Shown one piece after another: positions 1,725 through 39,949 of a stretch of 64,000 nucleotides of DNA (positions are counted from its first letter, which is position 1; every line of letters begins with the position of its first letter). Origin of the DNA: Verrucomicrobiia bacterium (GTDB lineage Bacteria; Verrucomicrobiota; Verrucomicrobiia; Chthoniobacterales; UBA6821); assembly GCA_040380225.1 (NCBI GenBank), contig JBEIJN010000005.1, positions 4,563 to 68,562 on the forward strand, written 5' to 3'. A program made the position numbers and the translations under genes. The notes under the pieces were generated by a model, which saw nothing but the letters and a program-made list of their open reading frames with translations, was not told the DNA's origin and searched no databases.

Positions 1725-2567
1725 ATGTTCTCAAAATCACACATTCACGGATTTCTGGCGGCCGCGCTCTGCGCGGCTGCCACACCCCTCTCCGCTCATA
1801 TCCTCTACACGGGGCGTGACTTCGGGATTTTTGATCCCAGCGGATCGAACACTTCTGTGACGATTTCCAAAAACAGGATCTCGTCTAACTTCGGATGGGC
1901 TGATGGGACGGACTCCGACTTTGGTGACAGCCACAAACTTCTTCCTTTTCGGTTCACTCTATTGTCGACGGGACTGGTCACCCTGCAGATTCAGGGGACA
2001 AGTTTCATATCGGGGGTGCTGAACATCGCCGCCATGGCAAATCCAGGCTTCTCCATCTACAAGGGAATCGCGCACCTTCCCCCGCTTGAAGAGGACCATG
2101 ATACAAGCGGGATCAGCAGTGCCTATATGGATGAAACCTATGGTGTTGCAAATTGGGAAGGATGCTTCAATGCCCTGGGTGATTGGAAAATGGGAAGCGA
2201 TGATGGAATCCAGTATTCGGACCTCTCTTCCTTTATCTATGCGGGCAATGCCGCGGATGGTACTTCCGCGAATTACGGCACCGGCGCGACTGTCATTCCT
2301 CGTGCAAATGGAACCACTCAAAGCAACGATCTGATCAGGGGTGATGGGCTCGCCGACGGCAGTGTCACGGGAACATTTGCCCTGGATGCCGGTGACTACA
2401 CCATCCTGGTCGGAGGGGCAACTTACGGCGGCACCTCCACCGCTTCCTTCGGATTCAACTCCACCCTCTCCGTGATGGCGATCCCAGAACCCTCCACCTA
2501 TGCGCTTTTATCGCTGGGGGCGATGGTCTTGACGGCGGCTTACCGACGCAGGATGGCGCGGGGATAG
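1725..2567 (+). CDS. PEP-CTERM sorting-domain secreted protein (tandem paralog)
   Basis: Same architecture as 879..1718. It shares AHI-YTGRDFG, GWADxTDxxxGDxHK, NALGDWKxGSD, IGNAADGxSANYGT and a C-terminal IPEPSTYALLSLGAMVLTAAYRRR. Confidence 0.8.
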   Translation: MFSKSHIHGFLAAALCAAATPLSAHILYTGRDFGIFDPSGSNTSVTISKNRISSNFGWADGTDSDFGDSHKLLPFRFTLLSTGLVTLQIQGTSFISGVLNIAAMANPGFSIYKGIAHLPPLEEDHDTSGISSAYMDETYGVANWEGCFNALGDWKMGSDDGIQYSDLSSFIYAGNAADGTSANYGTGATVIPRANGTTQSNDLIRGDGLADGSVTGTFALDAGDYTILVGGATYGGTSTASFGFNSTLSVMAIPEPSTYALLSLGAMVLTAAYRRRMARG

Positions 2568-2575
2568 GCGGCTAA

Positions 2576-2612
2576 GCGCAGGGGAACAATGCCCCGCGCA
2601 AAAAATCCTAAG
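2576..2612. repeat. family-S repeat, short form (outer hairpin plus AAAAAATCCTAAGCC tail)
   Basis: gcgcagggg-aacaat-ccccgcgc followed by aaaaaatcctaagcc. This matches the 3' half and tail of the elements at 12846 and 39855. Confidence 0.5.
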
Positions 2613-2614
2613 CC

Positions 2615-3349
2615 CTACGCAAGCAAAGCGACCATCTCTCGTGTAGCCTGTTCGATCCCGACGAACAGTGCGCGCGAGACGATGGAGTGGCCGATATTCA
2701 GCTCGACGAGCTTCGGCAGGGCGAGAATCGGCTTCACGTTCACGTAGTTGAGCCCGTGGCCCGCGTTCACCTGGATGCCTGCTTCATCGGCAAGGCGGGC
2801 GGCCTCGATGAGGCGTGAAAGTTCCGCATCGCGGGCTGCCCCCGAGGCCTCGGCATAGGCGCCGGTGTGGAGCTCGACGACCGGAGCGCCGAGTGAAGCG
2901 GCGGCGTGAATCTGGGCCGGGTCGGGATCAATGAAGAGGCTGACCCGGATCCCGGCGTCGGCCATTGATTTCAGCGTCGGCTCAAGCGCCGCGCGGTGCG
3001 TGATGCAATCGAGGCCACCTTCGGTCGTCACTTCCTCGCGGCTCTCGGGCACGAGGCAGACATCGGCGGGAAGCACCTGCAGCGCGATCGCCACGATCTC
3101 CGGGGAATTCCCCATCTCGAGGTTGAGCTTGGTTGCGATCGCTTCCTTGAGCCGGAAGATGTCGCGATCGACGACATGGCGGCGGTCCTGGCGCAGGTGC
3201 GCGGTGATGCCGACGGCGCCGCCCCGCTCAGCGGCCAGGGCGGCCTCGACGGGATCGGGTTCGACATTGATCGAGGCGGCGTTGCGGGCATACCGGGCCT
3301 GCCGCACGGTGGCGACGTGGTCGATATTGACGCCGAGCAACGCTGACAT
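2615..3349 (-). CDS. pdxJ: pyridoxine 5'-phosphate synthase
   Basis: 244 aa. The N-terminus LGVNIDHVATVRQAR and the HTGAYA and GHGLNY motifs are typical of PdxJ. Confidence 0.9.
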   Translation of the reverse strand: MSALLGVNIDHVATVRQARYARNAASINVEPDPVEAALAAERGGAVGITAHLRQDRRHVVDRDIFRLKEAIATKLNLEMGNSPEIVAIALQVLPADVCLVPESREEVTTEGGLDCITHRAALEPTLKSMADAGIRVSLFIDPDPAQIHAAASLGAPVVELHTGAYAEASGAARDAELSRLIEAARLADEAGIQVNAGHGLNYVNVKPILALPKLVELNIGHSIVSRALFVGIEQATREMVALLA

Positions 3350-8847: not shown

Positions 8848-9414
8848 ATGGGATCACCAATCGACTCCTTTTTCAGGACGCTTCTGACGGCCGCCATGAT
8901 CCTCACAGCGGGATCCTCCCTCCTTCTTCTCGGAGGATGTGCCGCCCCCGAACCTCCCCAGGTCAACCTCGAGAAGGCGAATGTCCTGCCGCTGGCGATC
9001 AACCCCGACTTTGTTTTCCGCAAGAAGACCCAGTTCCTGAACGATCCGGCCACCTTCCCCAAGGCGGCGGCCCAGCAAAGCGAGGCAATCAATTTCGAGC
9101 GTGCCTACCACATGTGGCCGGCCACGACCGCCCTCGACATGCACGCCCTCACCGGAAACTACCTCACCTTCTACTGGTGGAACCGGGGCCAACCCGCCGA
9201 TGTCACCGTGCGCCTGGAGTATCGCCAGGCCAATCTCGGCAACTTCGTGATGGCGCGCGAGAAGAGCTACTCCAATGTGAAGGGATCGACCCGCACCCAG
9301 TTCACCATCATCGGCGACGACTACCTCGAGAACGGTCCGGTCACCAACTGGCGTTGCCTCCTCATCGTGGATGGCAGGATCGTCGGCCTGACCCAGTCGT
9401 ATCTCTGGAAATAA
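8848..9414 (+). CDS. hypothetical lipoprotein
   Basis: Signal peptide with lipobox LLLLGGC|A. No family recognised. Confidence 0.55.
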   Translation: MGSPIDSFFRTLLTAAMILTAGSSLLLLGGCAAPEPPQVNLEKANVLPLAINPDFVFRKKTQFLNDPATFPKAAAQQSEAINFERAYHMWPATTALDMHALTGNYLTFYWWNRGQPADVTVRLEYRQANLGNFVMAREKSYSNVKGSTRTQFTIIGDDYLENGPVTNWRCLLIVDGRIVGLTQSYLWK

Positions 9415-9428
9415 ACCGGCTCCCCCAC

Positions 9429-10133
9429 ATGCTCCCCGAAATCGAAAAACTCCTCACCCTCCAGGACCGCGACCAGAAACTGCGCGCCGTCCTGACCGAG
9501 ATTGCAGCCCTGCCAGCCGAGAAGGCGGCCCGCGACCGTGAGCTCAAGGCCGCGGACGACCGGCTCGAGGCGGCCCTGACGCGCCAGAAGGAGATTGAGG
9601 TCGAGCGCAAGAGGCTACAGGGCGAGGTCAAGGCGAAGCAGGACCAGATCGCCCGTTACAAGAACCAGCAGCTCGAGACCCGCAAGAACGAGGAATTCTC
9701 CGCCCTGCGCCACGAGATCGAAGTCGCCGAGAAGGCCGTCACCGAACTCGAGGACAAGGAACTCGTCCTCATGGAGGAGGCCGAGAACCTCAAGCCCGCG
9801 CTGGAAGCCGCGCAGGAGGCCCACGCCGCCGAGAAGAAGAAAGTCGAGAGCCACATGGCCTCGCTCACCGCGCGCAAGGAGAACCTCGATGCCCGTCAGA
9901 AGGAGCTGGAAACCGAGCGCCCCCGCTTCACCGAAGGAATCGAGGAAGATCTCCTCGACCGCTACAACAGACTCTTCAAGAGCAAGAACGGCGTCGCACT
10001 CGTCACCGTGGAGCACGAAGTCTGCACAGGCTGCCACATGAAGGTCACCCATCAGGCCATCCTCGAAGTGAAGGCCGAGAAGGAGATCATCGGCTGTCCG
10101 CAATGCGGACGCATACTTTACGAACCCCAATAG
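9429..10133 (+). CDS. coiled-coil protein with C-terminal C4 zinc ribbon (COG1579-like)
   Basis: Start at MLPEIEKLLTLQDRD, in frame within ORF 8937..10133. Long heptad-rich region, then CTGCHMKV...CPQCGRILY. Confidence 0.75.
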   Translation: MLPEIEKLLTLQDRDQKLRAVLTEIAALPAEKAARDRELKAADDRLEAALTRQKEIEVERKRLQGEVKAKQDQIARYKNQQLETRKNEEFSALRHEIEVAEKAVTELEDKELVLMEEAENLKPALEAAQEAHAAEKKKVESHMASLTARKENLDARQKELETERPRFTEGIEEDLLDRYNRLFKSKNGVALVTVEHEVCTGCHMKVTHQAILEVKAEKEIIGCPQCGRILYEPQ

Positions 10134-10159
10134 TTTGGGGCTTGTGAGAGTTGGCGGAT

Positions 10160-10212
10160 AGCGGCGTTGCCGCTCGCTTGCAGTAGTTCACTACAGCGGC
10201 ACTCGCGCGCCT
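10160..10212. repeat. family-S repeat core, inverted orientation
   Basis: gttgccgctcgcttgcagtagttcactacagcggcactcgcgcgcc is the reverse complement of the inner module of the copies at 12846 and 39855. Confidence 0.5.
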
Positions 10213-10401
10213 TGCTCTCCATCCAATCTCTCTGCGCCTAAAGCCTAGCAAAATTTAAACCCGAACTCTGAAGATTAGAGAGATGCGTTGGTGTTAAGAT
10301 GGTGGTCGATAAGAGTTGCGGAGATCCGTTCTAACTTCAGTTTTTTCTGCCCCCCCCCAACGGGCTCGTTCCGTTGGAGCGCGATTTCATTGGTGCGCTA
10401 G

Positions 10402-11635
10402 GGAAACGCTGATTTAATCGGGAAGCGTTTCAATGCGATGCTATGCAGGATACTTGTTTAGGGTTAGACTGGTTGGCATGAACAAGCAGCTGAGTTTTTC
10501 TGCGAGCGAGTATGCTGGGAAGAAGAAGGCGACCAGAAGGGAGCGCTTCCTTGGGGAGATGGAGAAGGTGGTGCCTTGGGGGAAGCTTATCGCCCTGATT
10601 GAGCCATGTTATCCCAAGGGTGAGCGAGGGAGGCCTCCGGTGGGGATTGAGAGGATGCTGAGGATCTACTTCCTATCGCAGTGGTACGGGTTGGCAGACG
10701 AAGCCCTTGAGGATGCCATCTACGACAGTCAGGCGATGAGGAACTTTATCGGTGTGGATCTGGGAGGGGAAAGCGTGCCTGATGCGACGACATTGCTGAA
10801 GTTCCGACATCTCTTGGAAGAGAATGAGCTGACGCGGGCGATCTTTGAGGAGATCGGGAGGCATCTCAAGGCCAAGCAACTGATGATGAAGGAGGGAACC
10901 ATCGTGGATGCGACCATCATCAGCGCCCCCTCCTCAACCAAGAACGCGGAGGGCAGGAGGGATCCTCAGATGCATCAGACCCGCAAAGGCAACCAGTCGT
11001 ACTTCGGGATGAAGGCCCAAATTGGAGCGGATGCGAATTCGGGGTTGGTTCACAGTCTTGAGGGCACCCCCGCCAATGTGAGTGACGTCAGCCAGACCAA
11101 GCATCTGCTGCATGGAGAGGAGAAGAGTGTTCACGCCGATGCGGGATACACCGGGGTTGAAAAGAGGGAGGAATTTGAGGGCAGCAAGATCGAGTGGATG
11201 GTGCCTCAGAAGAAAGGACGTCTCAAAGCAATGGCCGATGGGTTGAAGAAGGATCTCTTACGGGAATGGGAGCGTCGGAAGGCGCAGGTGCGAGCCCGGG
11301 TGGAGCATCCCTTCCACATCGTCAAAAACCTCTTCGGCTACCGGAAAGTCCGATACCGGGGACTGAGGAAAAATCTCGCCCAACTTCACAGCCTCTTCGC
11401 CCTGGCCAATCTGGTCATTGCCGGACGCATGCTCCGCAGGGCCCAGATGGCATGAAATCACCAGAAACACCCTCCTTCGCAGCCAATGGATCACTTCATC
11501 GGCACCCTGCCACCGCTAAAAAATGCCCCTCCCGGAGCCACACGCGTTGCCAGATGATCAAATTTATCTCTCCAATCCCTTCCTCCACTCCAAAATCAGC
11601 CAAACTTTGAAAAAGGCGATTTAATCAGCGCTTCC
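10402..11635 (+). mobile_element. IS5-family (IS5 group) insertion sequence, complete, 1234 bp
   Basis: Imperfect terminal IRs: ggaaacgctgatttaatcg on the left, cgatttaatcagcgcttcc on the right. Flanked by a 4-bp direct repeat CTAG (10398-10401 and 11636-11639). Single DDE transposase gene. Confidence 0.85.
10478..11455 (+). CDS. IS5-family DDE transposase
   Basis: MNKQLSFSASEYAGKKKATRRERFL..., VDATIISAPSS, HADAGYTG and VEHPFHIVKNLFGYRKVRYRGLRKN are typical of IS5 transposases. Confidence 0.9.
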   Translation: MNKQLSFSASEYAGKKKATRRERFLGEMEKVVPWGKLIALIEPCYPKGERGRPPVGIERMLRIYFLSQWYGLADEALEDAIYDSQAMRNFIGVDLGGESVPDATTLLKFRHLLEENELTRAIFEEIGRHLKAKQLMMKEGTIVDATIISAPSSTKNAEGRRDPQMHQTRKGNQSYFGMKAQIGADANSGLVHSLEGTPANVSDVSQTKHLLHGEEKSVHADAGYTGVEKREEFEGSKIEWMVPQKKGRLKAMADGLKKDLLREWERRKAQVRARVEHPFHIVKNLFGYRKVRYRGLRKNLAQLHSLFALANLVIAGRMLRRAQMA

Positions 11636-11730
11636 CTAGAGGTGGCAATCGGATTCTCACCGATTCGGGAGCTTTCACTCCCGACCCAATTGGATGCCAC
11701 CCCGCAGCCGCCCACCATCAGGCGGGAGGA

Positions 11731-11883
11731 CTACATCTCGCTCTGGACAGCTCTGGCGCCTTTGCTGACACCTCGGCCTGTCGCACTGACGTCCTGACCG
11801 ACACCCCTAATGGTGTTACAACCCGTAAGGGTGGCAGCAGCGAGGAGGATCAGGGCTAGCATGGTTAGTGTGGTTGTTTTCAT
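11731..11883 (-). CDS. entericidin A/B-family small lipoprotein (50 aa; below the ORF-track cutoff)
   Basis: My own translation: MKTTTLTMLALILLAAATLTGCNTIRGVGQDVSATGRGVSKGARAVQSEM. Lipobox LTGC followed by NT-RG-G-D-S, as in the EcnA/B family. An alternative in-frame start lies at 11910. Confidence 0.6.
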   Translation of the reverse strand: MKTTTLTMLALILLAAATLTGCNTIRGVGQDVSATGRGVSKGARAVQSEM

Positions 11884-11962
11884 GGCATTGGATGTGGTGG
11901 ATTGTTTCATACGCAGCAGTTATCCCACACCCCTCGACCGCTTTCTATTGGTAGAAGCACTT

Positions 11963-12239
11963 AGAGACTGTCTGAAAACTGGGGAATGACGCGAGAGAGC
12001 AAGGGGGGCTGGATGGTCAGGCACATGCGAGGGAGAATCCCCGCAGCGGGCTTTGACCGAGCAGGGAACGCAGCCAGACAGCTTTCATTGCTCGCGCCCG
12101 GAGGGTTGGGTGGCTTTTCCCTTTGGCCAGTGTCGGATCGGACGAGACAAGACCGCAGGGGTATTGCCGCCCTCCTCCCTCCTTGGCCAACGGAAAAATC
12201 CCCGCCAACGCGGCTCTCCCGAGTCTTCAGACAGTCTCT
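11963..12239. repeat. 277-bp element closed by terminal inverted repeats (candidate MITE or long structured RNA)
   Basis: agagactgtctgaa (11963-11976) is the perfect reverse complement of ttcagacagtctct (12226-12239). Pairing extends imperfectly to about 24 bp. Confidence 0.5.
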
Positions 12240-12342
12240 TGGGTCCACCGTTCGACCGAAAAACCACGCAAGCCAATTGCTTAGCCATGTCTAATCGTTT
12301 CCGCCCATAGCGTGGAGACTCTTGCGGAAGTAATGTTTTCCC

Positions 12343-12528
12343 ATGAAAGCAATACTTTTGGCCTGCATCTGTAGCCTGATCCTCACCATATCGCTGACCT
12401 CGTGCTTCTCACTTAGCACTACGAGGACAACGAATCCCACACCTTACACCACGACGACGGTGTCTCAGCAGAACAGGGGCGTCTTCCAGAAGCCGTACAC
12501 GACCACGACGCGCAGCGTCACCTATTGA
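12343..12528 (+). CDS. hypothetical small Thr-rich lipoprotein
   Basis: 61 aa. Signal peptide with lipobox SLTSC, followed by low-complexity T/P-rich sequence. Confidence 0.4.
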   Translation: MKAILLACICSLILTISLTSCFSLSTTRTTNPTPYTTTTVSQQNRGVFQKPYTTTTRSVTY

Positions 12529-12577
12529 GCGGATAACGCGTCCCCATCCAATACTAAAACCTCCAACCTCTAGAACC

Positions 12578-12727
12578 ATGCTCTACACGATCGCCCTGGT
12601 TTTTATCATCCTTTGGTTGCTCGGCCTCGTCAGCAGTTACACGATGGGTGGATTCATCCATGTCCTGCTGGTCGTCGCCTTGGTGGTGCTGCTTGTGCGG
12701 ATCATCCAGGGGAATCGGATCCCCTGA
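12578..12727 (+). CDS. lmo0937-family small membrane protein (49 aa; below the ORF-track cutoff)
   Basis: My own translation: MLYTIALVFIILWLLGLVSSYTMGGFIHVLLVVALVVLLVRIIQGNRIP. This matches the two-helix ILWLLG...GG-IH-LLV-A pattern of the family. Confidence 0.6.
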   Translation: MLYTIALVFIILWLLGLVSSYTMGGFIHVLLVVALVVLLVRIIQGNRIP

Positions 12728-12845
12728 GTTCTGTCACGGAGTGAACAAGTGACGCGTGGAAAGTGAAGGGGTGGTAGCGGAGCGCCCTTTGGGCCCATGC
12801 AGGCTTATCATTTAAAGGTGCAACACGTACTATAAGGCTTGGAAG

Positions 12846-12934
12846 TTTTGATGCCGCGCGCGCGCGCGCGAGCGAAGCTGTAGCGAGCTACTGCGAGCGA
12901 GCAGCAACAACGCGCGGCGCAAAAATCCCAAGCC
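12846..12934. repeat. family-S nested-hairpin repeat, full form
   Basis: tttt-g-at-gccgcgc ... gctgtag-cgag-ctactgc ... gcgcggc-g-c-aaaaa, then tail tcccaagcc. Lies 14 nt beyond the uvrD stop. Confidence 0.6.
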
Positions 12935-12947
12935 TCCGCTCAACAGC

Positions 12948-14960
<2,013 letters not shown>

Positions 14961-15013
14961 AACGGAAAAGATGAGGGATGAAGGATGAAAGCTGAAACCG
15001 GGAGGACAGAGAG

Positions 15014-15167
15014 TAATCAGGAAATCAGGAAATCAGGAAGACGTGATGGGAGGGAAATCTGCCCTCCAATGGTGAAAAGGCTTGGCAGGGAAGCGGCAAT
15101 TACTCTCCACCGATCCCAAATGACCCATGGCTCCTCCGCCTTTTCCTGATTTCCTGATTTCCTGATA
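15014..15167. repeat. foldback element with stuttered arms (word AATCAGGA)
   Basis: A 24-bp perfect inverted repeat: (atcaggaa)x3 at 15016-15039 pairs with (ttcctgat)x3 at 15143-15166. The spacer is 103 nt. Confidence 0.8.
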
Positions 15168-15173
15168 AAAATT

Positions 15174-15836
15174 TCAGGATTCTTTCCCGATCGTTTGCCC
15201 AAATTCGCGAATGATCCGCGGGTAGAGTTCGTGCTCGGCGATCTGGATGCGGGCGTGGAGTGACTCCGCCGTGTCGCCCGGGAGGACTGGAACACGGCTC
15301 TGGCCGAGGATCGCGCCGGTATCGACCCCGGCATCGACGAGGTGAACGGTGCAGCCTGCCTCGGGTACTCCCGCCTCGATCGCCTGACGCCATGCTTCCA
15401 GTCCCCGGAAAGATGGCAGCAGAGAGGGATGGATGTTCAGGATCCGTCCCGGAAAGGCGCGAAGCAGCGGTTCCTTGATGACGCGCATGAATCCTGCGAG
15501 GACGACGAAATCGACCCTCGCCTCGCGGAGCAACCGGACAATTTCCTCCTCGGCTTCCGGGGCCATCTTCGTGCGGAAGGGACCGGGTGCCACGAATTGA
15601 CCGGGGATCCCGAATTCCTTCGCAAGAGGAAGGATCCCGGCGGTCTCGATATCCGAGAGAACGATCACCGGTTCACATCCGAGGATCCCGCCGCGCCATG
15701 CCTCGGCCAAGGCACGGAAGTTGGATCCCTTCCCGGAACCAAGAACGCCGAATCGGGGCCCCGAGTTGCCGGGTGAAATGGAAAACCCCGGCCTGGAAGG
15801 ACCGGGGTTATTCATCCCTTGCAGGGAAAGACTCAA
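15174..15836 (-). CDS. purN: phosphoribosylglycinamide formyltransferase
   Basis: VLGSGKGSNFRAL, NIHPSLLP and TVHLVD-GVDTG motifs. The N-terminal ~25 aa are uncertain; an alternative Met lies at 15815. Confidence 0.85.
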   Translation of the reverse strand: MSLSLQGMNNPGPSRPGFSISPGNSGPRFGVLGSGKGSNFRALAEAWRGGILGCEPVIVLSDIETAGILPLAKEFGIPGQFVAPGPFRTKMAPEAEEEIVRLLREARVDFVVLAGFMRVIKEPLLRAFPGRILNIHPSLLPSFRGLEAWRQAIEAGVPEAGCTVHLVDAGVDTGAILGQSRVPVLPGDTAESLHARIQIAEHELYPRIIREFGQTIGKES

Positions 15837-15848
15837 TGTGAGGCTCGG

Positions 15849-16103
<255 letters not shown>

Positions 16104-16139
16104 GGCAGTAGGTGGGTTGGGTTGAAAGTGGCGCTGAGA

Positions 16140-16454
16140 CTAGGCGGAGATCTTGGTGATCTTCAGCTTGGTGAGCTGGCGGCGATGGCCGACCGTGCGG
16201 TGGTAGCCCTTGCGGCGCTTGAACTTGAAGGCGATCACCTTGTCGTCCTTATACTGTTCGACGACCTCGGCCTTGACGCTGGCTCCCGAGACGAGAGGGG
16301 CGCCGAGGTTGACCTTATCGCCGTTCACGACGAGCAGGACGTCGCTGAAGGTGGTTTCTTTGCCGGCTTCGGCATGGAGCTTCTCGACACTCAGGACGTC
16401 TCCCTCGGAGACGCGGTACTGCTTGCCGCCGGTTTGGATGATTGCGTAGGACAT
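16140..16454 (-). CDS. rplU: 50S ribosomal protein L21
   Basis: Start at MSYAIIQTGGKQYRVSEGD, the internal Met of ORF 16140..16511. Confidence 0.95.
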   Translation of the reverse strand: MSYAIIQTGGKQYRVSEGDVLSVEKLHAEAGKETTFSDVLLVVNGDKVNLGAPLVSGASVKAEVVEQYKDDKVIAFKFKRRKGYHRTVGHRRQLTKLKITKISA

Positions 16455-16576
16455 GGGAAATTCTTTGGAAAAAGGAGTGAGAGGATGCCACAGGCCGACA
16501 AGGCCGTCCACAAAAATATTGAGTTTTTCTCTCTTGCTACCGCGACGTCGTGACGTATGATGCCCGACCCATCAAT

Positions 16577-16660
16577 GCTCGGGTGGTGAAATGGCAGACA
16601 CGTACGTTTGAGGGGCGTATGCCGAAAGGCATGGGGGTTCAAGTCCCCCCCCGAGCACCA
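16577..16660 (+). tRNA. tRNA-Leu (anticodon GAG)
   Basis: Hand-folded. Acceptor gctcggg/cccgagc, anticodon stem tacgt/gcgta with loop ttGAGgg, long variable arm tgccgaaaggcat, T arm ggggg-ttcaagt-ccccc, encoded ACCA. Confidence 0.9.
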
Positions 16661-16678
16661 TCTCCAGCCGGTGGCTGG

Positions 16679-16709
<31 letters not shown>

Positions 16710-16792
16710 ATGCAGGCATCGTTCGTTGCAGCACTCCCCTGATCCTTCCTTCTTTTGGATTTTTGTGCCGACCCTGTCCCTATAGACTCAGA

Positions 16793-16826
16793 CCTAATAG
16801 TCTAACAGACTACAGCCTAATAGCCT
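16793..16826. repeat. family-T array of YCTAAYAG-type 8-mers
   Basis: cctaatagtctaacagactacagcctaatagcct matches the reverse complement of 62620..62653 at 32 of 34 positions (hand count). It abuts the stop codon of the exonuclease gene. Confidence 0.75.
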
Positions 16827-17407
16827 TACCCCAGCAGTGCCTCCCCCGGGTGATCCTGGATCCCGGTCAGCTCGATCAGTCTGCGCAGCAGGAGCAGTGA
16901 GGCCAGGGAGTCGCTCAGCGCCTCGTGCCAGCGGAAGTCGGGGAGGTGCGTTCGGGCCTCCGCTTCCAACCCAAGCTCCCCGACCAGATCCGAGAGGGCA
17001 TAGGAGGGACGGCCGGGCAGGATCTTCCGGCTGAGGGTGAGGGTGTCGACCCAGGGGCCGAAGCCGTGCATCGGGAAGGTGCGCAGAAATCTTTTTTCCG
17101 TCCCGCTTCCATGGGCCACGATCCAGCGCCCGCCGAGACGCCCCTTGATCTCCGGCCAGAGCCCGAGAAGATCCGGCGCATCCTTCAGATCATCGGCCGT
17201 GATGCCGTGGATCTGCTGGGCCGACCAGGTGACCGGGCGGGCGGTCTTGAGATAGCTGCGGTAGAAGGAATCGGAGAGGGGCGCCAGTCCGCCCATCCAC
17301 GCAATGCCTATCTGGACGGGGATTCCCGCCTCGTTGGCACGCTCGCCGGCCGACTCGAAATCAAGTGCGGCGAAGGGAATCTCCCGGATCAGGCGTCCCA
17401 AGATCAT
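16826..17407 (-). CDS. DEDD-type 3'-5' exonuclease domain protein (DnaQ-like)
   Basis: 193 aa. ALDFESAG (Exo I-like), WIVAHGSGTEKRFL and HEALSDSL (Exo III-like). Confidence 0.65.
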   Translation of the reverse strand: MILGRLIREIPFAALDFESAGERANEAGIPVQIGIAWMGGLAPLSDSFYRSYLKTARPVTWSAQQIHGITADDLKDAPDLLGLWPEIKGRLGGRWIVAHGSGTEKRFLRTFPMHGFGPWVDTLTLSRKILPGRPSYALSDLVGELGLEAEARTHLPDFRWHEALSDSLASLLLLRRLIELTGIQDHPGEALLG

Positions 17408-17428
17408 ACCCGCGGGAGCGGAGCGGGG

Positions 17429-18487
17429 TCAGGAGTTGCGGAGCAACTCCGCCGTAGCCTCCCAATCGAGGCAGGCATCGGTGATGGAGACGCCGTAGCG
17501 GAGCTTCGACGGGTCGTCGCCGAGGTTCTGCGCGCCGAACTCCAGGTGGCTTTCGAGCATGGCCCCGACGATATCGGCGCGGCCTGCGGCCCTCTGCTCA
17601 AGGATGCTCTTCCAGACCTCGGGCTGACGGGCGGGATCCTTGCCGCTGTTGGCATGGCTGCAGTCGATCATGATGGCCGTCGGGACTCCGGCGGCCTTCA
17701 GTTTCGCGGCGGCATCGGCCGTCTGATCAGGATGGTAATTGGTCCCGTCGCGGCCCCCGCGCAGGACGAGATGGCCGTCGGGATTCCCCGCGGTCTTGAT
17801 GATGCTGGTCATCCCCTCCTGGTCGATGCCGAGAAAACTGTGGCCGGTGCGCGAGGAGCGCATCGCGTCGATGGCGGTCTGGACACTGCCGTCGGTGCCG
17901 TTCTTGAAGCCGACAGGCATCGAGAGGCCGCTCGCCATCTCGCGGTGGGTCTGCGACTCGGTGGTGCGGGCTCCGATGGCCGACCAGCTGATGAGGTCGG
18001 CGATGTACTGCGGCATGATCGGGTCGAGCACCTCGGTGGCGGCCGGAAGCCCGAGCGCGGCGACATCCAGCAGCAGCCGGCGCGCCACCTCGATGCCTCG
18101 GGCCAGATCGCCGGAGTCGTTGAGATGGGGGTCGTTGATGAGGCCCTTCCAGCCGACGGTGGTGCGGGGCTTCTCGAAATAGACGCGCATCACGATGAAG
18201 AGCCGGTCCTCGACCTCCTTGGCGAGCGCGGCCAGGCGCTTCGCATAATCGATTGCCGAAACGGGATCGTGGATGGAGCAGGGCCCGACGATAACGAGCA
18301 ACCGCGGATCCTCGCCACGCAGGATACGGCGGCAGGTCTCGCGATACTCCGCCACCTTCGAAAGAACCTCCGGGGAGGCGGGCAGCTTGGCCTTCACCTC
18401 GCGGGGCGTCACCAGGCGCGTGACGCCGCTGACACGTGTATTCTCCGTGACCGGCCTGGCTGTGTTCTCTGTCGTGGCGGTGCTCAT
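17429..18487 (-). CDS. aroG: 3-deoxy-7-phosphoheptulonate (DAHP) synthase, class I
   Basis: LLVIVGPCSIHD, VYFEKPRTTVGWKGLINDP and IDCSHANS motifs. Start moved to MSTATTEN at 18487. Confidence 0.9.
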   Translation of the reverse strand: MSTATTENTARPVTENTRVSGVTRLVTPREVKAKLPASPEVLSKVAEYRETCRRILRGEDPRLLVIVGPCSIHDPVSAIDYAKRLAALAKEVEDRLFIVMRVYFEKPRTTVGWKGLINDPHLNDSGDLARGIEVARRLLLDVAALGLPAATEVLDPIMPQYIADLISWSAIGARTTESQTHREMASGLSMPVGFKNGTDGSVQTAIDAMRSSRTGHSFLGIDQEGMTSIIKTAGNPDGHLVLRGGRDGTNYHPDQTADAAAKLKAAGVPTAIMIDCSHANSGKDPARQPEVWKSILEQRAAGRADIVGAMLESHLEFGAQNLGDDPSKLRYGVSITDACLDWEATAELLRNS

Positions 18488-18550
18488 GGCAATAATCGAG
18501 TCGAACAAGATCCATGCACCCGGCCCGGAATGCAATATGCAAGTGGAGGA

Positions 18551-18684
18551 GACGAGGGTCGAGGGTCGAGCGCAAAAACCCCAAAGACAACCGCCACCAA
18601 ACAGAAACACTCGGTTTTGCCCTCCTGATCCCTTTGTCAGCGCTTCAGAAGCCCTCGACAGTCGCCCCTCGACTCTCGACTCGG
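18551..18684. repeat. foldback element with stuttered arms (word CGAGGGT/CTCGAC)
   Basis: Left arm gacgagggtcgagggtcgagcg, right arm gccctcgacagtcgcccctcgactctcgactcgg. The right arm is nearly identical to that of 23292..23389. Confidence 0.65.
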
Positions 18685-18729
18685 CTGTTTCAGCTTTCCG
18701 ATTTCAGCTTTTCAGCTTTTTCTACCCCT

Positions 18730-19763: not shown

Positions 19764-19839
19764 TTTCGGCTGAAGTATTTTGGATTAACCAACCCCTCTC
19801 TTGCACTCTCTTGCGTTAAGACCCTAACACTCTAACAGC

Positions 19840-20061
19840 CTAGGCCTCATCGCGCCTCTTGTCAGTAAATGCGAAAATCAATGATGCGGTCTGCAGCAAA
19901 AGTATCGGAACGCCAAACCTTAAAATCCGGTCCAAGTAGATGTTCTGCATGTCGGTCGAACTGATCGGCTGGGCGTACGTGACAAAGCTGCCAGTGATTA
20001 ATACAACGGTCAGCACGATGCTTGCAAATAGAAGTCCCATCACGATTCGTTTCCTGGTCAT
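19840..20061 (-). CDS. hypothetical small membrane protein
   Basis: 73 aa with two hydrophobic helices. No family recognised. Confidence 0.35.
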   Translation of the reverse strand: MTRKRIVMGLLFASIVLTVVLITGSFVTYAQPISSTDMQNIYLDRILRFGVPILLLQTASLIFAFTDKRRDEA

Positions 20062-20186
20062 GAGCGTGGTGGTGTCTAATGGTTACCAGGCGGTTGAATA
20101 GCTGTGTTTTTCTTTGGGTTCATGGGGGGGCTTTACTGTCTTTTTGGATGGTCGATAGTTTCTTCAGCTAATACAAAGCGGTTGCG

Positions 20187-20230
20187 CCCCTAACAGCCTA
20201 ACAGCCTAACAGCCTTCAGCCTAAACCCCT
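20187..20230. repeat. family-T array: cccc-(taacagcc)x3-ttcagcctaaacccct
   Basis: Read directly. The same element with a single unit occurs at 63903..63930. Confidence 0.8.
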
Positions 20231-23287: not shown

Positions 23288-23291
23288 GCCA

Positions 23292-23389
23292 CGTCGAGAG
23301 TCGACAGACGAGCGTCGAGAGCTTTTTGTGAGTATAGGCCTCGGGCTTTTGCCTTTTCTGAAGCCCTCGACCCTCGTCTCTCGACTCGG
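23292..23389. repeat. foldback element with stuttered arms (word GTCGAGAG/CTCGAC)
   Basis: cgtcgagagtcgacagacgagcgtcgagagc pairs with gccctcgaccctcgtctctcgactcgg, forming a ~26-bp imperfect stem. It sits between convergent genes. Confidence 0.7.
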
Positions 23390-23393
23390 GCCT

Positions 23394-25403
23394 CTACAGC
23401 ACTTCCACCGGGCACTCTGGCAAAGCCTTGAGGAAGGCCTTGCCGTAGGGCCGCGAAAGAATGCGGCTGTCTAGGATCACGATGGAGCCTCGATCCTTGG
23501 AGCTTCGGATGAGGCGGCCCACACCCTGGCGCAGTTTCAGGATCGCCTCGGGCAATGAATAAGTCTGAAAGGGATCGCCTCCCGCGGACTCGATCTCCTC
23601 CAACTTCGCCTCGGTGAGGGGATGGTCGGGGGTCACGAACGGCAGGCGCGTGATGATGACGCTGGAGAGAGCCTCGCCAGGCAAGTCGACCCCGGTCCAG
23701 AAGCTGTCGGTCCCGAACAATACGCTCTCCCCGTCCTCGCGAAAGCTTTCCAGCATGCGCGAACGCGATAGTCCCCCGCCCTGCACGATGAGGTTCCAAC
23801 CCTTCTCCTCGAAGAAGCCCGTCATCCTCGCCGCCACCGACTGCATGGTGCGGTGGCTGGTAAAGAGGACAAAGGCCCGTGCGCGACTCTCCTCCGTGAA
23901 GTGGCTAATCCATTTCGCAAGCGCCTCCTCGTAAGCCGAATCCTTCGGCTCAGGCATCTTGCGGACGAGACGGATCTTCATCTGCCGTGCGTAATCGAAG
24001 GGGGAGCCGAGCTGCAGCGAGGGGACCTCAAGCGCACCCACCCGGCCACGGAAATAATCGAGCTCCGCAGAGCCGACCGAGAGGGTCGCGCTGGTCATGA
24101 CGGCGGTGCTGCCTTCGCCGAAGAGAAGGCGTCCCAGCAGCGGCGCGACCGCGACCGGTGCCGCATGGAGACTGGTCCAGGTGGAAGCCTTGCCGCTCCG
24201 CTCGACCCAGTAGACGTGATCCGGTTCGCTCTGGGAGAGAAAATCGGAAAGCCCCGCTCGCGCCGTGCGGAGGCGGGAGGCGACATCGTTGAGCTCACCC
24301 TGCAGTCCCTCCTCCTCGGCTTTTGCCGCTGCGGTTCCGGCCGATTCGGCAAGGCTCGCCAATCCCTCCGCGAGCGGACTCTCCGCCACGGCCTCCGCGA
24401 GATCCGCCGACTGGTCGGCGCGGATGCGGCTTTCACGCCCCTGACGGAAGGTGCAGGCGCCGGCCAGCTTGTCGAAGAAGCGGTCGACCTCCGGAATGAG
24501 ATCCGATGCCGCGGAAATCCCCCCGTTCTGCCGCGCCTGCTGGAGCAGCCCCTTGCGGGTGCGTGGGTTGTAGAGCCGCTGGATGGACTGGCGCAGGCTG
24601 TATTGGGAGAGGTTGAAGCCGAGGTGACGGGAAGCGACCTGCTCGACGGTGTGGGCCTCGTCAAAGATCACGAAATCATCGGGGAAAAGGTAGCCGAGCC
24701 CCTCCTCCTCGGGATCTCCCAGCAGGGTGAAGAAGAGCGTGTGATTGAGAACCAGAATCTGGGCCGTCTGGGCGCGTCGCCGGGCGGACTGGTAGAAGCA
24801 GCCCGAGTCGCGGCCGCAGGTCTTCGGCGTGCAGAGGTGCTGCTCGCTGCAGACCTGCATCCAGAGTTCGCGCGGTGGCTCGAAGGGGAGATCGCTCAGC
24901 GAGCCGTCCGTGGTGGTTGCGGCCCACTCCCGGATCCTCTCCAGTTCCGGCCGCTCCTCGGCGGTGAAGAGGTCGGCCCCGTGTCGGTGCGCGCGGGCGA
25001 GACGCGTGGGGCAGACATAATTCTGGCGCCCCTTCAGGAGGACCGCCTCGAAGTCCTCTCCGGTCAGCCCCTTCACCAAGGGGATGTCCTTGTAGAGGAG
25101 CTGCTCCTGAAGATTGATCGTGTGCGTGCTGACGAGAGCCTTTCGTCCCGTCCGCTTGGCATGAAGCACGGCGGGGAGCAGGTAGGCCAGCGACTTGCCG
25201 ACACCGGTTCCCGCCTCCACGACCAGATGGGAGCGGCCGGCTAATGCTCCGGCCACCGCCCCGGCCATGCGCTGCTGCTCGGGGCGCCACTCGAATCCGC
25301 GGATCGCGGCAAGGCTTCCCTTCGGGCCGAAGAGCGCGGCCACTTCCGCCGCGAAGCCGGCGCTGCCGCCCCCGGCGGGAAACTGCTCATTGATGGAAAT
25401 CAT
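23394..25403 (-). CDS. dinG: ATP-dependent DNA helicase, DinG/Rad3-like
   Basis: 669 aa. EAGTGVGKSLAYLLP Walker A, DEAH box (IFDEAHT), C-terminal helicase motifs. Confidence 0.85.
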   Translation of the reverse strand: MISINEQFPAGGGSAGFAAEVAALFGPKGSLAAIRGFEWRPEQQRMAGAVAGALAGRSHLVVEAGTGVGKSLAYLLPAVLHAKRTGRKALVSTHTINLQEQLLYKDIPLVKGLTGEDFEAVLLKGRQNYVCPTRLARAHRHGADLFTAEERPELERIREWAATTTDGSLSDLPFEPPRELWMQVCSEQHLCTPKTCGRDSGCFYQSARRRAQTAQILVLNHTLFFTLLGDPEEEGLGYLFPDDFVIFDEAHTVEQVASRHLGFNLSQYSLRQSIQRLYNPRTRKGLLQQARQNGGISAASDLIPEVDRFFDKLAGACTFRQGRESRIRADQSADLAEAVAESPLAEGLASLAESAGTAAAKAEEEGLQGELNDVASRLRTARAGLSDFLSQSEPDHVYWVERSGKASTWTSLHAAPVAVAPLLGRLLFGEGSTAVMTSATLSVGSAELDYFRGRVGALEVPSLQLGSPFDYARQMKIRLVRKMPEPKDSAYEEALAKWISHFTEESRARAFVLFTSHRTMQSVAARMTGFFEEKGWNLIVQGGGLSRSRMLESFREDGESVLFGTDSFWTGVDLPGEALSSVIITRLPFVTPDHPLTEAKLEEIESAGGDPFQTYSLPEAILKLRQGVGRLIRSSKDRGSIVILDSRILSRPYGKAFLKALPECPVEVL

Positions 25404-31598: not shown

Positions 31599-31623
31599 GG
31601 AAGCGCTGATAATCAGTGCTTCC
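31599..31623. mobile_element. 25-bp IR-IR mini-element derived from the IS5-family ends
   Basis: ggaagcgctgat-a-atcagtgcttcc is the left and right IS termini joined head to head. It is flanked by a CTAA direct repeat (31595-98 and 31624-27). Confidence 0.55.
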
Positions 31624-31701
31624 CTAAACTCCCGCCGCGTGAGCGACGCCCGTCTCATTTTCGCGGATGGACGGGTTCTGATCGTGAGGTAGCATCCGCT
31701 C

Positions 31702-32556
31702 ATGGATTCCCTCCTCACCCTCCCCATCGGCGACTTCCGCGCCGTCGAGTTGACCCTTCGGCTGACCGTGGCGCTGGTGGCCATGACGGCTCTCCTTCTC
31801 CTCTTCTCCATCAGCTGCACGGCGGGCCGCCTCCGTCTGCCGCTCATCCTCGCCTCGGTCGCCCTCCTCGGAGCGGCCTGGTTTGAATCGGGCGTCTGGC
31901 TCGGCTGGAAGCAGGGTTTCGAGTTGGCCGGCACCTCCTACTGCGTCACCGGTCAGCTCCTCTCCGGCGAGGACCGCATCCTGGCCTGGTCCCTCGGGGT
32001 CCCCGCGATTCTCTTCTGCTTCGGACTGCTTCAGTTCCCCCGGGGAGAGGGGCATCGCTCTGCATGGACGCGGTTCTGCGCGGCGATCCTGCTTCTCGCA
32101 CTCCTCGCGCCGTTCTCGAGCCTGCTGGCGCTGGCATTGCTGGGCTGGGTGCTCTGGTTCCTCTGCATCAAGGCTCCTTCCGTCGCCAAGCGTTCCTCCG
32201 TTTCCCTGCGGCGGGAATGCCTGATCGCATCGGGTAGCATCGCGCTCCCGTTCCTTATCACCCTACTGGGCGGCTGGCATCTGCTGCCGCTGGGAAAGTC
32301 TGCCGAGGGGATTCTTGTCCGCGGTGAAATCATCCGCTCCCTTTGCGACATCCTCTCCTTAGTCGTGCCCGCCGTGATCCTGCTGACGGCAGTTCTCAGG
32401 CTGGCTGCGGATGTTTCGGAAAAATCCCCCGAACGCTCATCTGCACCCCCAACCGCATCCCACATCACGCCCCCAATCCCACAAATCAAGGAAAAGAAAT
32501 CCAAGCCACGCGATCCCGCATCGTCGGATCTCCAATCCGGCCTGTTCGGAAGCTAG
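31702..32556 (+). CDS. hypothetical polytopic membrane protein (6-7 TM helices)
   Basis: 284 aa with multiple hydrophobic helices and a Pro/Ser-rich tail. The stop TAG lies inside the left CTAG target duplicate of the MITE. Confidence 0.5.
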   Translation: MDSLLTLPIGDFRAVELTLRLTVALVAMTALLLLFSISCTAGRLRLPLILASVALLGAAWFESGVWLGWKQGFELAGTSYCVTGQLLSGEDRILAWSLGVPAILFCFGLLQFPRGEGHRSAWTRFCAAILLLALLAPFSSLLALALLGWVLWFLCIKAPSVAKRSSVSLRRECLIASGSIALPFLITLLGGWHLLPLGKSAEGILVRGEIIRSLCDILSLVVPAVILLTAVLRLAADVSEKSPERSSAPPTASHITPPIPQIKEKKSKPRDPASSDLQSGLFGS

Positions 32557-32863
32557 GGAACCGCTGATTAAATCGCATAGAGGCCGTTGCGGAAAGAATG
32601 GGCCGCGGGCAAGGCGGCTTCGCGGGCGCATCCCCGCAGTGGGCTGCCGTAACGGATGCGAAGCAACGGCCGGGCAAGCAAACCGCGAAGCCAACACAGC
32701 CCCCGGCCTGTTATCTCCGCAACCCGGAGGGCTGAAGCCATTTGTCGATTTTTGCAGCGTTGCTCGCTCGGGCGAGACCGCTGCGGGTATCGCCCAGCAC
32801 TCACGCCTTCAAAAATCAGCAACTGCCCTTCAGCGGCCATCATGGGATTTAATCAGCGGTTCC
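32557..32863. mobile_element. 307-bp MITE, a non-autonomous derivative of the IS5-family element
   Basis: Termini ggaaccgctgattaaatcg and gatttaatcagcggttcc match the IS IRs at 10402 and 11635. CTAG target duplication at 32553-56 and 32864-67. No transposase ORF. Confidence 0.75.
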
Positions 32864-33946
32864 CTAGAGCGTCGGGTAATCCGTATATCCCTTCTCTCCG
32901 GGTGAATAGAAGGTCGATTCGTCCGCTGCATTGAGGGGTGACTTCTGCCTGAAGCGCTGGGGCAGATCGGGATTCGCGATGAAAGGCACGCCGAATGCAA
33001 TCGCATCGGCCCACCCCTCTGCGAGGGCGGCATTGCCCGACTCGAGGGTGAATCCCCCGGCAGAGACAATCTTCCCGTTCCAAGCAGAGCGGAGCTCCTT
33101 CGGGCCGATTCCCTCCGCAGCTCCATGGGCTATGTCCTGGGCGGTCACCTGCGTGATGTGGGCATAGGCGAGATCGAAGCGGTTGAGCTCGCGGAGCACG
33201 TGGCCGAAGGTCTCGAAAGGATTGTCGTCCCGCATGTCATTGAAGATACCGGCGGGGGAGAAACGGATCCCTACCCGGTCAGCACCCCAGACTCCGACCA
33301 CGGCCTCGGTGACCTCGATGGTCAGGCGCGACCGGTTGGCGACCGATCCACCGTATTGGTCGGAGCGCTTGTTTGTCCCAGTGCGCAGGAACTGATCGAG
33401 CAAATACCCGTTGGCATTGTGGATCTCCACACCGTCGAATCCGGCCTCCTTGGCGAGCTTCGCGACGTGGACATACTCGGCGATGATGCCAGGAATCTCG
33501 GCGGTCTCGAGGGCGCGGGGAGTTACATATTCCTCCATCGCTGTCCCAGTGAAGACCTGCCCCTTGGGCTTGATGGCCGAGGGAGCGACGGGGAGTGCAC
33601 CTTCCTTCTGATAAGAGGGATGAGAGATGCGGCCGACATGCCAGAGTTGCAGGTAGATGTGCCCACCCTTGGCATGGACGGCCTCCGTGACTTTCTTCCA
33701 ACCCGCGACCTGTGCCTCAGTGTGAATGCCGGGCGTGCTGGGATATCCGTAACCGGAGGGAGAAACGGAGGTCGCCTCCGAAATGATCAGTCCTGCCGAG
33801 GCCCGCTGGGCGTAATATTCCGAGTTCAGCTCATTCGGCACATGACCCTCGGAAGCCCGGCAACGCGTGAGCGGCGCCATGAAGATCCGGTTTGGCAAGG
33901 CCAGCGGTCCGAGCTGGAGGGGAGTGAAGAGGTCGGAGCGGGACAT
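32864..33946 (-). CDS. NADH:flavin oxidoreductase, Old Yellow Enzyme family (NemA-like)
   Basis: 360 aa. LFTPLQLG, NRIFMAPLTR, QLWHVGR and GFDGVEIHNANGYL motifs. Confidence 0.9.
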   Translation of the reverse strand: MSRSDLFTPLQLGPLALPNRIFMAPLTRCRASEGHVPNELNSEYYAQRASAGLIISEATSVSPSGYGYPSTPGIHTEAQVAGWKKVTEAVHAKGGHIYLQLWHVGRISHPSYQKEGALPVAPSAIKPKGQVFTGTAMEEYVTPRALETAEIPGIIAEYVHVAKLAKEAGFDGVEIHNANGYLLDQFLRTGTNKRSDQYGGSVANRSRLTIEVTEAVVGVWGADRVGIRFSPAGIFNDMRDDNPFETFGHVLRELNRFDLAYAHITQVTAQDIAHGAAEGIGPKELRSAWNGKIVSAGGFTLESGNAALAEGWADAIAFGVPFIANPDLPQRFRQKSPLNAADESTFYSPGEKGYTDYPTL

Positions 33947-38952: not shown

Positions 38953-38975
38953 AATGCGAAGCCGAAGAATATTTT

Positions 38976-39065
38976 CCGCAGAGGCGCAGAGGCGCGGAGT
39001 TTTTAGACAAAACAACTGCAGGATTTCTTTTTCTTCATCTCTGGGACTCTGCGACTCTGCGCGAG
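38976..39065. repeat. foldback element with stuttered arms (word CGCAGAGG)
   Basis: ccgcagaggcgcagaggcgcggag pairs with ctctgggactctgcgactctgcgcgag. It sits in the thyA-folA spacer. Confidence 0.65.
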
Positions 39066-39672: not shown

Positions 39673-39678
39673 ACCAGC

Positions 39679-39828: not shown

Positions 39829-39854
39829 GCCCTCTTTCGCCCAAGGCGCAGGGA

Positions 39855-39935: not shown

Positions 39936-39949
39936 GCGCAAGCTGCGGA

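Follow-up and report, generated by a model that had tools for sequence, protein, structure and literature searches.

The 64,000-nucleotide window analysed here, from contig JBEIJN010000005.1 of a Verrucomicrobiia bacterium in the order Chthoniobacterales, contains three full copies and one decayed copy of an imperfect palindrome of about 100 nucleotides (nt), each lying beside the stop codon of a protein-coding gene. Copy A (12834-12936, plus strand; covariance model (CM) score 117.4 bits, E 5.8e-30, match span 12832-12938) lies 12 nt from the TAG stop codon (12948-12950) of a minus-strand uvrD-family helicase gene (12948-14960; Pfam UvrD-helicase and UvrD_C). Copy B (39843-39945, plus strand; 95.5 bits, match span 39841-39948) lies 4 nt from the TGA stop codon (39950-39952) of a minus-strand LbH/hexapeptide transferase gene (Pfam Hexapep), and its arms belong to the 'TTTTAG / GCGGGGC' subfamily. 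Copy C (10139-10239, minus strand; 96.2 bits, match span 10136-10241), which has the arms of the 'GGATGGAGAGC / GCTATCCGCC' subfamily, lies 5 nt from the TAG stop codon (10131-10133) of a plus-strand CT398-like/Zn-ribbon gene (8937-10133; Pfam). The decayed copy, relic D (approximately 2539-2617, plus strand), is a weak match (12.5 bits, E 0.72) that directly adjoins (0 nt) the TAG stop codon (2615-2617) of the minus-strand pdxJ gene (Pfam PdxJ). Its inner hairpin is deleted, its 3' arm reads CCCCGCGCAAAAAATCCTAAGCC, and its 5' arm overlaps the final codons and TAG stop of the PEP-CTERM gene on the far side (1725-2567; also assigned by Pfam). A CM search of the whole window returned only copies A, B and C at a strong score (E values of 1e-24 to 1e-30), plus the weak relic D.

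A first-pass annotation of the window had named four places for this repeat, and both alignment and the CM found related sequence at each of them. It had bounded copy A at 12846-12934, which is the right place, but the element reaches about 12 nt further in the 5' direction. It had also described a tail common to the copies; this sequence (AAAAATCCCAAGCC) exists, but it is the 3' half of two outer helices, the 5' half of which (AAGGCTTGGAAGTTTT) had been overlooked. Copy C had been thought to carry an inverted inner module at 10160-10212, whereas it matches copies A and B over its full length as a reverse complement, so that all of the element lies on the minus strand. The short form proposed at 2576-2612 is related sequence, but it is a probable relic rather than a distinct form.

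A family of imperfect palindromes with covarying stems

Scanning one genome per species with a 20-nt pattern from the core of the element (TACTGCRAGCGAGCNGCAAC) returned 44 loci, approximately 34 of which are true copies and fragments. These come from 15 metagenome-assembled genomes (MAGs) labelled Spartobacteria, Chthoniobacterales or Verrucomicrobiota, apart from one of the 15 that is labelled Proteobacteria. Chance matches and an unrelated repeat from an alphaproteobacterium account for the remaining loci. This repeat, at L008, L013, L037, L042 and L043, comprises five near-identical copies of a sequence of more than 150 nt in one MAG (MFD05512.bin.2.166); it resembles the element family only within the 20-nt pattern match and is probably an insertion sequence (IS) or other multicopy element. 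A CM trained on 31 copies and run on the window and the fetched loci added seven strong copies in the flanks of those loci, plus one at the UvrD ortholog L047. Overall, 38 copies are confident, in the window and 15 species-level Chthoniobacterales ('Spartobacteria') MAGs. The loci were fetched as stretches of approximately 8 kb from fragmented MAGs, and our counts are of copies in these loci, not per genome; some take in orthologous, non-independent copies, and gene calls were made by open reading frame (ORF) heuristics. The element is approximately 101-103 nt long, with the family consensus AAGGCTTGGAAGTTTGGATGCCGCGCTAGGCGCGCGAGCGAAGCTGTAGTGAACTACTGCGAGCGAGCAGCAACAACGCGCGGCGCCAAAATCCCAAGCCTT. 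Searches of viral contigs, plasmids and phages gave zero matches. Rfam gave nothing in the whole window at gathering thresholds, and near copy A, where matches with E up to 10 were considered, the best scored 17 bits against a gathering threshold of 76. We conclude that these sequences form a previously undescribed family of imperfect-palindrome intergenic repeats, limited to freshwater Chthoniobacterales (Verrucomicrobiota).

As a single strand, each copy can fold into three stacked helices, P1, P2 and P3, that close an asymmetric core. The consensus helices are AAGGCTTGG / CCAAGCCTT for P1, TTTGG / CCAAA for P2 and GCCGCGC / GCGCGGC for P3. In copy A, AAGGCTTGG (12834-12842) pairs with CCAAGCCT (12928-12935) to form the outer helix P1 (12835-12842 with 12928-12935), followed on the same plus strand by P2 (TTTTG, 12846-12850, with CAAAA, 12920-12924) and P3 (GCCGCGC, 12853-12859, with GCGCGGC, 12912-12918). 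The conserved core (12860-12911) contains an inner hairpin in which GCTGTAG (12877-12883) pairs with CTACTGC (12888-12894) around a T:T mismatch. Across the family, the core is conserved in sequence and non-palindromic, reading CGC-GA-GC-GAA-[hairpin]-GA-GC-GA-GC(A)G on the modelled strand, which is antisense to the abutting gene. On this strand it consists of short G-C helices split by the purine internal loops GA/GA and GAA/GA, together with the 7-bp GTAG-containing hairpin. Whichever strand is folded, each window copy adopts the nested hairpin, with energies of -27 to -43 kcal/mol over the intervals used.

The nested hairpins and compensatory stem changes described by the first-pass annotation proved real. 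The stem pairs that it quoted, gccgcgc/gcgcggc at 12853/12912 and gcggggc/gccccgc at 39863/39922, are exact, and the inner hairpin was likewise found, T:T mismatch included. We counted covariation over 35 pairs in 36 distinct copies, using 500 shuffles and slid partners as controls. Paired cells made up 91.8% of the total, and double changes occurred at 20 of the 35 pairs, compared with 9.3 in shuffles. The number of double-change cells was 73, as against 17.8±3.2 in shuffled alignments (0 of 500 as high) and at most 29 with a slid partner. P2 reads TTTGG/CCAAA in most family members and otherwise TTTTG/CAAAA, TCGGG/CCCGA, TTCGG/CCGAA, TTCAG/CTGAA, TTTCG/CGAAA or TTTAG/CTAAA. The inner hairpin also covaries, occurring as GCTGTAG/CTACTGC, GGCGTAG/CTACGCC and GCCGTAG/CTACGGC, and the T:T mismatch becomes C:G in the last two forms. 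A few compensatory changes fall within the short core helices.

The modelled strand carries one near-invariant U·G pair (33 of 36 copies). Away from this fixed pair, changes of G·U type (38) and A·C type (32) were equally frequent, and this equality persisted where the abutting gene alone can transcribe the element. Because there is no bias between the two types, the covariation proves selection or templating for intrastrand pairing, not a particular functional RNA. Strong covariation without an RNA-strand signature, as seen here, cautions that covariation alone is no proof of RNA function.

Placement behind stop codons, persistence and movement

The copies are placed with strict polarity. At 34 of 38, the stop codon of a long incoming ORF ends between -2 and +17 nt away from the 3' arm, which is the CCAAGCCT end, and it is always this same arm that faces the stop codon of the abutting gene. 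All four window copies follow this rule; copy C is on the minus strand because its abutting gene is on the plus strand. In a test of uniform placement, 27 of 30 spacers had a copy this close, compared with 5.45 expected (0 of 200,000 simulations), and the 3'-arm end was the nearer end to the stop codon in 29 of 30, bearing out the suggestion that copies are enriched at the 3' ends of genes. The exceptions are L021, where a second copy stands in tandem behind a flush one; L036 and L044, where copies lie approximately 100 nt from the stop codon; and L039, which has no incoming gene. The copies at L044 and L039 also adjoin a gene start, which from the sequences we take to belong to a deacetylase/glycosyltransferase-like gene and a PolX-like gene, respectively. 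The ORF beside the 3' arm at L036 is spurious, and the genes at these exceptional copies are uninformative.

On the far side of the copies lies either the stop codon of another gene, at 8-688 nt, or a start codon, mostly at least about 100 nt away, and for this reason the copies mark the ends of transcription units. Convergent spacers account for approximately 70% of copies (24 of the 34 with a gene call on the far side), and divergent spacers are almost never occupied. By Pfam, the abutting genes encode UvrD, PdxJ, SecA, SufD, SdhB, PurL, an FKBP isomerase and others, to which we would add, from reading the sequences, what are presumably ProRS, GlyRS, MetH, GlmS, PDH-E2 and Acs. These are unrelated housekeeping genes, and we found no function that they share.

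The stop codons themselves are biased. TAG was used at 18 of 32 gene ends beside elements, compared with 40 of 187 elsewhere (Fisher p 1e-4), and TGA was depleted. In five copies the AG of TAG forms the first two bases of the element, which accounts for only part of the TAG excess. The spacing between stop codon and element shows no 3-nt phase.

The lack of a U-tract after the hairpin, noted in the first-pass annotation, was confirmed on both strands, with T at background frequency beyond the paired TT. A scan of the window for hairpins followed by U-tracts gave 13 sites, compared with 15.6 expected, and thus did not exceed chance; none of the element copies was among them. Gene ends that have no element folded no better than intragenic controls. 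The uvrD stop codon sits in the loop of a perfect 10-bp hairpin, GCTCAACAGC-TAG-GCTGTTGAGC (12939-12961), which adjoins copy A. Independent hairpins of at least 7 bp lie between stop codon and element in 5 of 38 copies (13%, compared with 2% of random windows). We rejected the idea that stop-codon hairpins are general in these genomes, given how element-free gene ends fold and how few copies have such a second hairpin.

At a given site the element is old, remaining intact past synonymous saturation in some lineages and decaying from its distal side in others. Copy A is 97% identical to its ortholog in L007 and copy C 100% identical to its ortholog in L009. In eight of eight pairs of orthologous loci from different species, among which the KLKL trio is possibly paralogous, the element was more conserved than the fourfold-degenerate sites of the adjoining gene (for example, identities of 0.97 versus 0.60, 0.93 versus 0.33, 0.89 versus 0.47 and 0.85 versus 0.52), although these pairs were ascertained by an intact 20-nt core and so are biased to conserved copies. 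The series of loci orthologous to copy B, beside the LbH gene, was ascertained instead by protein orthology. In this series the element is intact in L127 (88% amino-acid identity to the window), where it is 0.80 identical as against 0.45 at fourfold sites and has three compensatory pair changes in the inner hairpin, and in L132 (87%), where it carries the arm variant of copy C. The distal arm has been lost in L126 and L128/L129, the proximal 50 nt alone remains in L131, and a 31-nt spacer with approximately 22 nt of the proximal arm is left in L133. L130, L134 and L135 (83-86%) have no element. The stop codon at this locus switches between TAG and TGA among the orthologs. At the UvrD locus, copy A recurs in L007, the identical position in L047 (88% amino-acid identity) is occupied by a copy from a different subfamily, and neither L046 (88%) nor L045 (60%) has an element.

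Two other features were seen at the LbH loci. Motif runs (CCTAACAG) stand in place of the distal half of the element in L131. In L128/L129, which are lake metagenome contigs, an island of approximately 8 kb (10876-18700) lies between the decayed element behind LbH and the DHFR gene, which are adjacent in relatives. This island encodes PD-(D/E)XK, WYL and NADAR proteins and several unknown proteins, and looks defence-like.

Copies have also moved or recombined between loci in the past, because arm variants are common to unrelated loci in different genomes. The arm pair GGATGGAGAGC…GCTATCCGCC, with the same internal mismatch, follows CT398, LbH, UvrD and PDH-E2 genes, and the pair TTTTAGATGCGGGGC…GCCCCGCGCTAAAAG follows LbH and one unrelated gene. 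L127 and L132 have a core variant in common and different arms, so that cores and arms form a mosaic. Identity was the same within genomes (0.773) as between them (0.772), with a top within-genome pair of 0.96, and we saw neither a recent burst nor within-genome homogenization.

Possible roles at gene ends

The reading we prefer, and to which we would give about an even chance, is that the element is a new gene-end hairpin of the REP/ERIC kind (repetitive extragenic palindromes and enterobacterial repetitive intergenic consensus sequences). The transcript of the upstream gene would include the element, which would act in cis as REP, ERIC or Correia elements do. A very stable 3' hairpin without a U-tract (predicted at -35 to -55 kcal/mol) could block 3'-to-5' exonucleases, or could stop or insulate transcription between convergent genes, or both. 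Because the hairpin begins inside the footprint that a ribosome covers as it terminates, the element may modulate translation termination too, as has been reported for Escherichia coli REPs within 15 nt of a stop codon. Most REPs sit downstream of ORFs, and TAG stop codons are often provided by their GTAG termini (PMC3733652); ribosomes stall at REPs located within 15 nt of a stop codon, and 3' untranslated regions are stabilized by REPs (PMC12306157).

Several points weigh against this reading. The RNA-level role is one that we infer, and the pairing is free of an RNA-strand signature (38 G·U-type and 32 A·C-type changes). The strand that folds more stably (28 of 36 copies), the same one that bears the purine-rich loops, lies antisense to the abutting gene. 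Hairpin stability alone fails to explain why approximately 100 nt stay near one consensus at dozens of loci. A terminating ribosome should melt a hairpin so near the stop codon, which disfavours efficient intrinsic termination of the abutting gene. The element is also dispensable: among the lineages compared at the LbH locus, three keep it intact, four have it in decayed form and three lack it, and the eight pairs in which it outlasts synonymous sites were, as noted, chosen through an intact core.

The alternative that survives best, though we consider it unlikely, is that the element is purely selfish. It would then be a non-autonomous mobile element, similar to a MITE (a miniature transposable element with inverted repeats) or a REPIN, recognized by an enzyme as folded single-stranded DNA; its position at gene ends would reflect target preference plus the purging of harmful insertions, and the host would gain no benefit. 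Consistent with this possibility, arm variants recur at unrelated loci in different genomes, including the pair with the same mismatch (GGAGAGC/GCTATCC); cores and arms are mosaic; the UvrD and LbH loci carry different subfamilies in related lineages; and copies decay and disappear. The lack of an RNA-type G·U bias would suit pairing at the DNA level, or repair of quasi-palindromes templated from arm to arm.

Several observations weigh against a selfish element. The flanks of the 38 copies have no common direct repeat that could be a target-site duplication, the element ends have no conserved target motif, and there is no clean empty site at the UvrD or LbH loci. The relatives without a copy (L046, L130, L134 and L135) have flanks too diverged or rearranged to align, and the shortest spacer, in L133, holds an arm relic. 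In the approximately 360 kb made up by the window and the fetched loci, we found no larger element bounded by the same arms, and a tblastn search for RAYT/IS200-type genes gave nothing below E 0.9, using as queries E. coli TnpA-REP (checked against 4ER8) and an unverified IS608 TnpA sequence. Genomes lack the near-identical copies that a recent burst would leave, and some copies are intact after synonymous saturation. In addition, we know of no mechanism that targets the first 0-17 nt after arbitrary stop codons in a fixed polarity.

The only transposase nearby belongs to an IS5-family IS at 10398-11639, with a transposase ORF at 10433-11455 (Pfam DDE_Tnp_1 and DUF772) and 23-nt terminal inverted repeats (CTAGGGAAACGCTGATTTAATCG / CGATTTAATCAGCGCTTCCCTAG). 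We rejected this DDE transposase as the mobilizer, as the ends of its IS are unrelated to the element. The IS is missing from the ortholog L009, so that synteny breaks approximately 150 nt beyond copy C, and an IS of the same type has inserted into the CTAG inside the element in L030.

Rather less probable is a proposal in which the element serves as a lineage-specific gene-end signal recognized by a factor dedicated to it. The candidate binding site for this factor would be the core, which has tandem G·A loops and an invariant GAT bulge; the position within the ribosome footprint and the TAG bias would couple translation termination to 3'-end formation or decay; and the signal would have spread on a mobile carrier. 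If true, the element would represent a type of factor-dependent terminator or processing signal that has yet to be described in bacteria. To our knowledge, gene ends in Verrucomicrobia are essentially unstudied, and the element offers a testable handle on 3'-end formation, mRNA stability and the encounter of the terminating ribosome with downstream structure in this group.

A function on the antisense strand is doubtful. Antisense transcription, convergent or spurious, could be halted by the element just short of the gene, or the element could form the 3' end of the opposite gene's transcript, with a protein binding the G·A loops. The antisense strand is more stable by a mean of 3 kcal/mol (28 of 36 copies, p 4e-5) and carries the near-invariant U·G pair, and the tandem GA/GA and GAA/GA loops of the core fall on this strand when folded. 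The share of convergent spacers (24 of 34) and the flush position would suit a shield for the protected gene. However, approximately ten copies have no gene reading into that strand, no U-tract or other terminator feature follows the hairpin, and no promoter-like sequence was apparent on reading the consensus, and the scan of the window placed no site within copies A and C. With the fixed U·G pair set aside, single changes favour neither strand.

We regard a role at the DNA level as improbable. Here a host protein would bind the element extruded as a cruciform or hairpin, much as gyrase and IHF bind BIMEs (bacterial interspersed mosaic elements) and REPs, and the element would serve as a topological or recombination site at convergent gene ends. 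Equal tolerance of pairing on both strands and the preference for convergent spacers are consistent with such a role, as are synteny breaks or insertions at or just past the distal end (L029/L031, the 8-kb island in L128/L129 and the IS beside copy C). However, a symmetric function leaves the strict polarity and the spacing of -2 to +17 nt unexplained, a protein that only bound double-stranded DNA would exert no selection for 35 pairs of intrastrand complementarity, and no candidate binding protein was found.

A recoding signal that alters stop-codon decoding, like SECIS, PYLIS or viral read-through signals, is very improbable. It would account for the 34 of 38 copies in which the hairpin starts no more than 17 nt from the stop codon and for the excess of TAG (18 of 32), but spacing has no 3-nt phase, two of the three frames stop inside the element without a conserved extension (from reading the consensus), TAG and TGA swap among orthologs at the LbH locus, and the abutting proteins are ordinary, complete housekeeping enzymes. 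SECIS-like, attC and LexA-box readings were set aside on sequence.

Finally, the proposal that the element is a bidirectional terminator with its polarity reversed (T-run, stem, A-run), and that it arose when a 45-nt module inserted into a simpler hairpin's loop, is scarcely credible: copy A does read T-run to A-run on both strands and one module-less form exists at 2576-2612, but the two runs pair with each other as the covarying helix P2, which is TTTGG/CCAAA in most copies, and the short form is a decayed copy, because its ortholog L011 keeps the inner hairpin and core, having lost the 3' arm, because the approximately 360 kb contain only a few broken copies and no module-less family, and because the LbH series shows decay by deletion.

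Neighbouring repeats and known palindromic families

The window contains several other repeats. At 32553-32867, two IS5-type terminal repeats stand inverted, 241 nt apart, in what is probably a MITE derived from the IS5-family IS, and a further solo end lies at 31606-31629. On the minus strand at 11955-12245, in an ORF-poor stretch, lies a 291-nt region that 31-nt inverted repeats close at either side (11963-11993 and 12209-12239). At -131.7 kcal/mol, its fold is far better than those of shuffles (z -3.95); the region has no Rfam match at E up to 1, and could be an undescribed structured RNA or another palindromic element. Beside copy B, a 136-nt direct repeat with 88% identity joins 39410-39545, in the 3' part of the DHFR gene (39091-39672), to 39674-39809, between DHFR and copy B, and is a partial duplication of the end of the DHFR gene. 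Other short intergenic motif families, often in tandem, are CCTAACAGCC, ATCAGGAA, GCAGAGGCGC and TCGACTCTCGAC. The sites of these intergenic motifs fall into four groups: 16793-16826, 19815-20230, 62620-62653, 63242-63274 and 63905-63930 (group 1); 15006-15047, 15143-15171 and 63289-63322 (group 2); 38968-38999 and 40780-40811 (group 3); and 18644-18685 and 23288-23394 (group 4). The motif CTCTGCGC flanks elements in L012 and L025. A 57-nt direct repeat with 96% identity (AAGAGCTGCGTAAGACTACGACGAAGTCGTTGCCCAAAGGGCGCCACCGCTTGCCGG) occurs twice, 9 kb apart (50142-50198 and 59171-59227), and has a small hairpin of its own.

Like intrinsic terminators, the element places a G+C-rich hairpin where a transcription unit ends. 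It differs from them in having no U-tract and a far longer, interrupted stem, in being one sequence that recurs at many genes, and in starting within the ribosome footprint. The attC sites of integrons are imperfect palindromes of 57-141 nt that fold as single strands, conserve arm structure more than sequence and follow stop codons in fixed polarity, all of which the element resembles. Unlike attC sites, it has no RYYYAAC/GTTRRRY core sites at its ends; its neighbours are core housekeeping genes in mixed orientation rather than a cassette array, and no integrase was noted among the neighbouring genes examined.

MITEs are likewise small, non-coding and multicopy, with inverted-repeat ends, subfamilies across loci and presence or absence among relatives. 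By contrast with MITEs, complementarity in the element continues past its ends (AAGGCTTGG…CCAAGCCTT) through P1, P2 and P3 to the core, and it covaries. Target-site duplications are also absent, the approximately 360 kb contain no parent IS whose ends match, and both the IS5-family IS of the window and its own MITE differ from the element in their ends.

ERIC/IRU sequences and the Correia/NEMIS elements of Neisseria are imperfect palindromes of approximately 100-150 nt without an ORF that lie in transcribed intergenic regions and are conserved from species to species, which makes them similar to the element. According to De Gregorio and colleagues, ERIC and Correia elements reportedly fold in mRNA and may affect its stability or processing. 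The element differs from them in lacking sequence similarity and a TA target duplication, in its strict polarity and spacing relative to stop codons, and in occurring in a different phylum.

The REP/BIME sequences of E. coli, Pseudomonas and Stenotrophomonas (SMAG), tagged with GTAG or CGTC, are also dispersed extragenic palindromes with maintained pairing and no U-tract. Like the element, they lie in convergent or co-directional spacers downstream of ORFs, many within 15 nt of the stop codon and with termini that supply TAG (PMC3733652, PMC12306157). At approximately 101 nt, the element is three to five times longer than a REP (20-40 nt), and it is a single three-tier hairpin with a non-palindromic core, whereas a REP/BIME is a doublet of short palindromes. 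GTAG or CGTC is a terminal tag in REPs, but in the element GTAG lies inside the inner stem; the ends of the element are AAGGCTTGG and CCAAGCCTT, and GTAG or GTAA directly abuts the gene-side end in only approximately 10 of 38 copies. Almost 90% of the element copies sit right against a stop codon in a single polarity, compared with reported values of approximately 11% to about half for E. coli REPs.

The element thus fails the defining tests for GTAG-tagged REPs, classical MITEs, intrinsic terminators and attC sites, and is best filed as new kin of REP and ERIC, within no named family. In practice, repeats of this sort break MAG assemblies and can pass for small RNA genes or terminators. With this element, the REP/ERIC class of 'domesticated or tolerated' palindromic repeats now extends to an uncultivated freshwater lineage.

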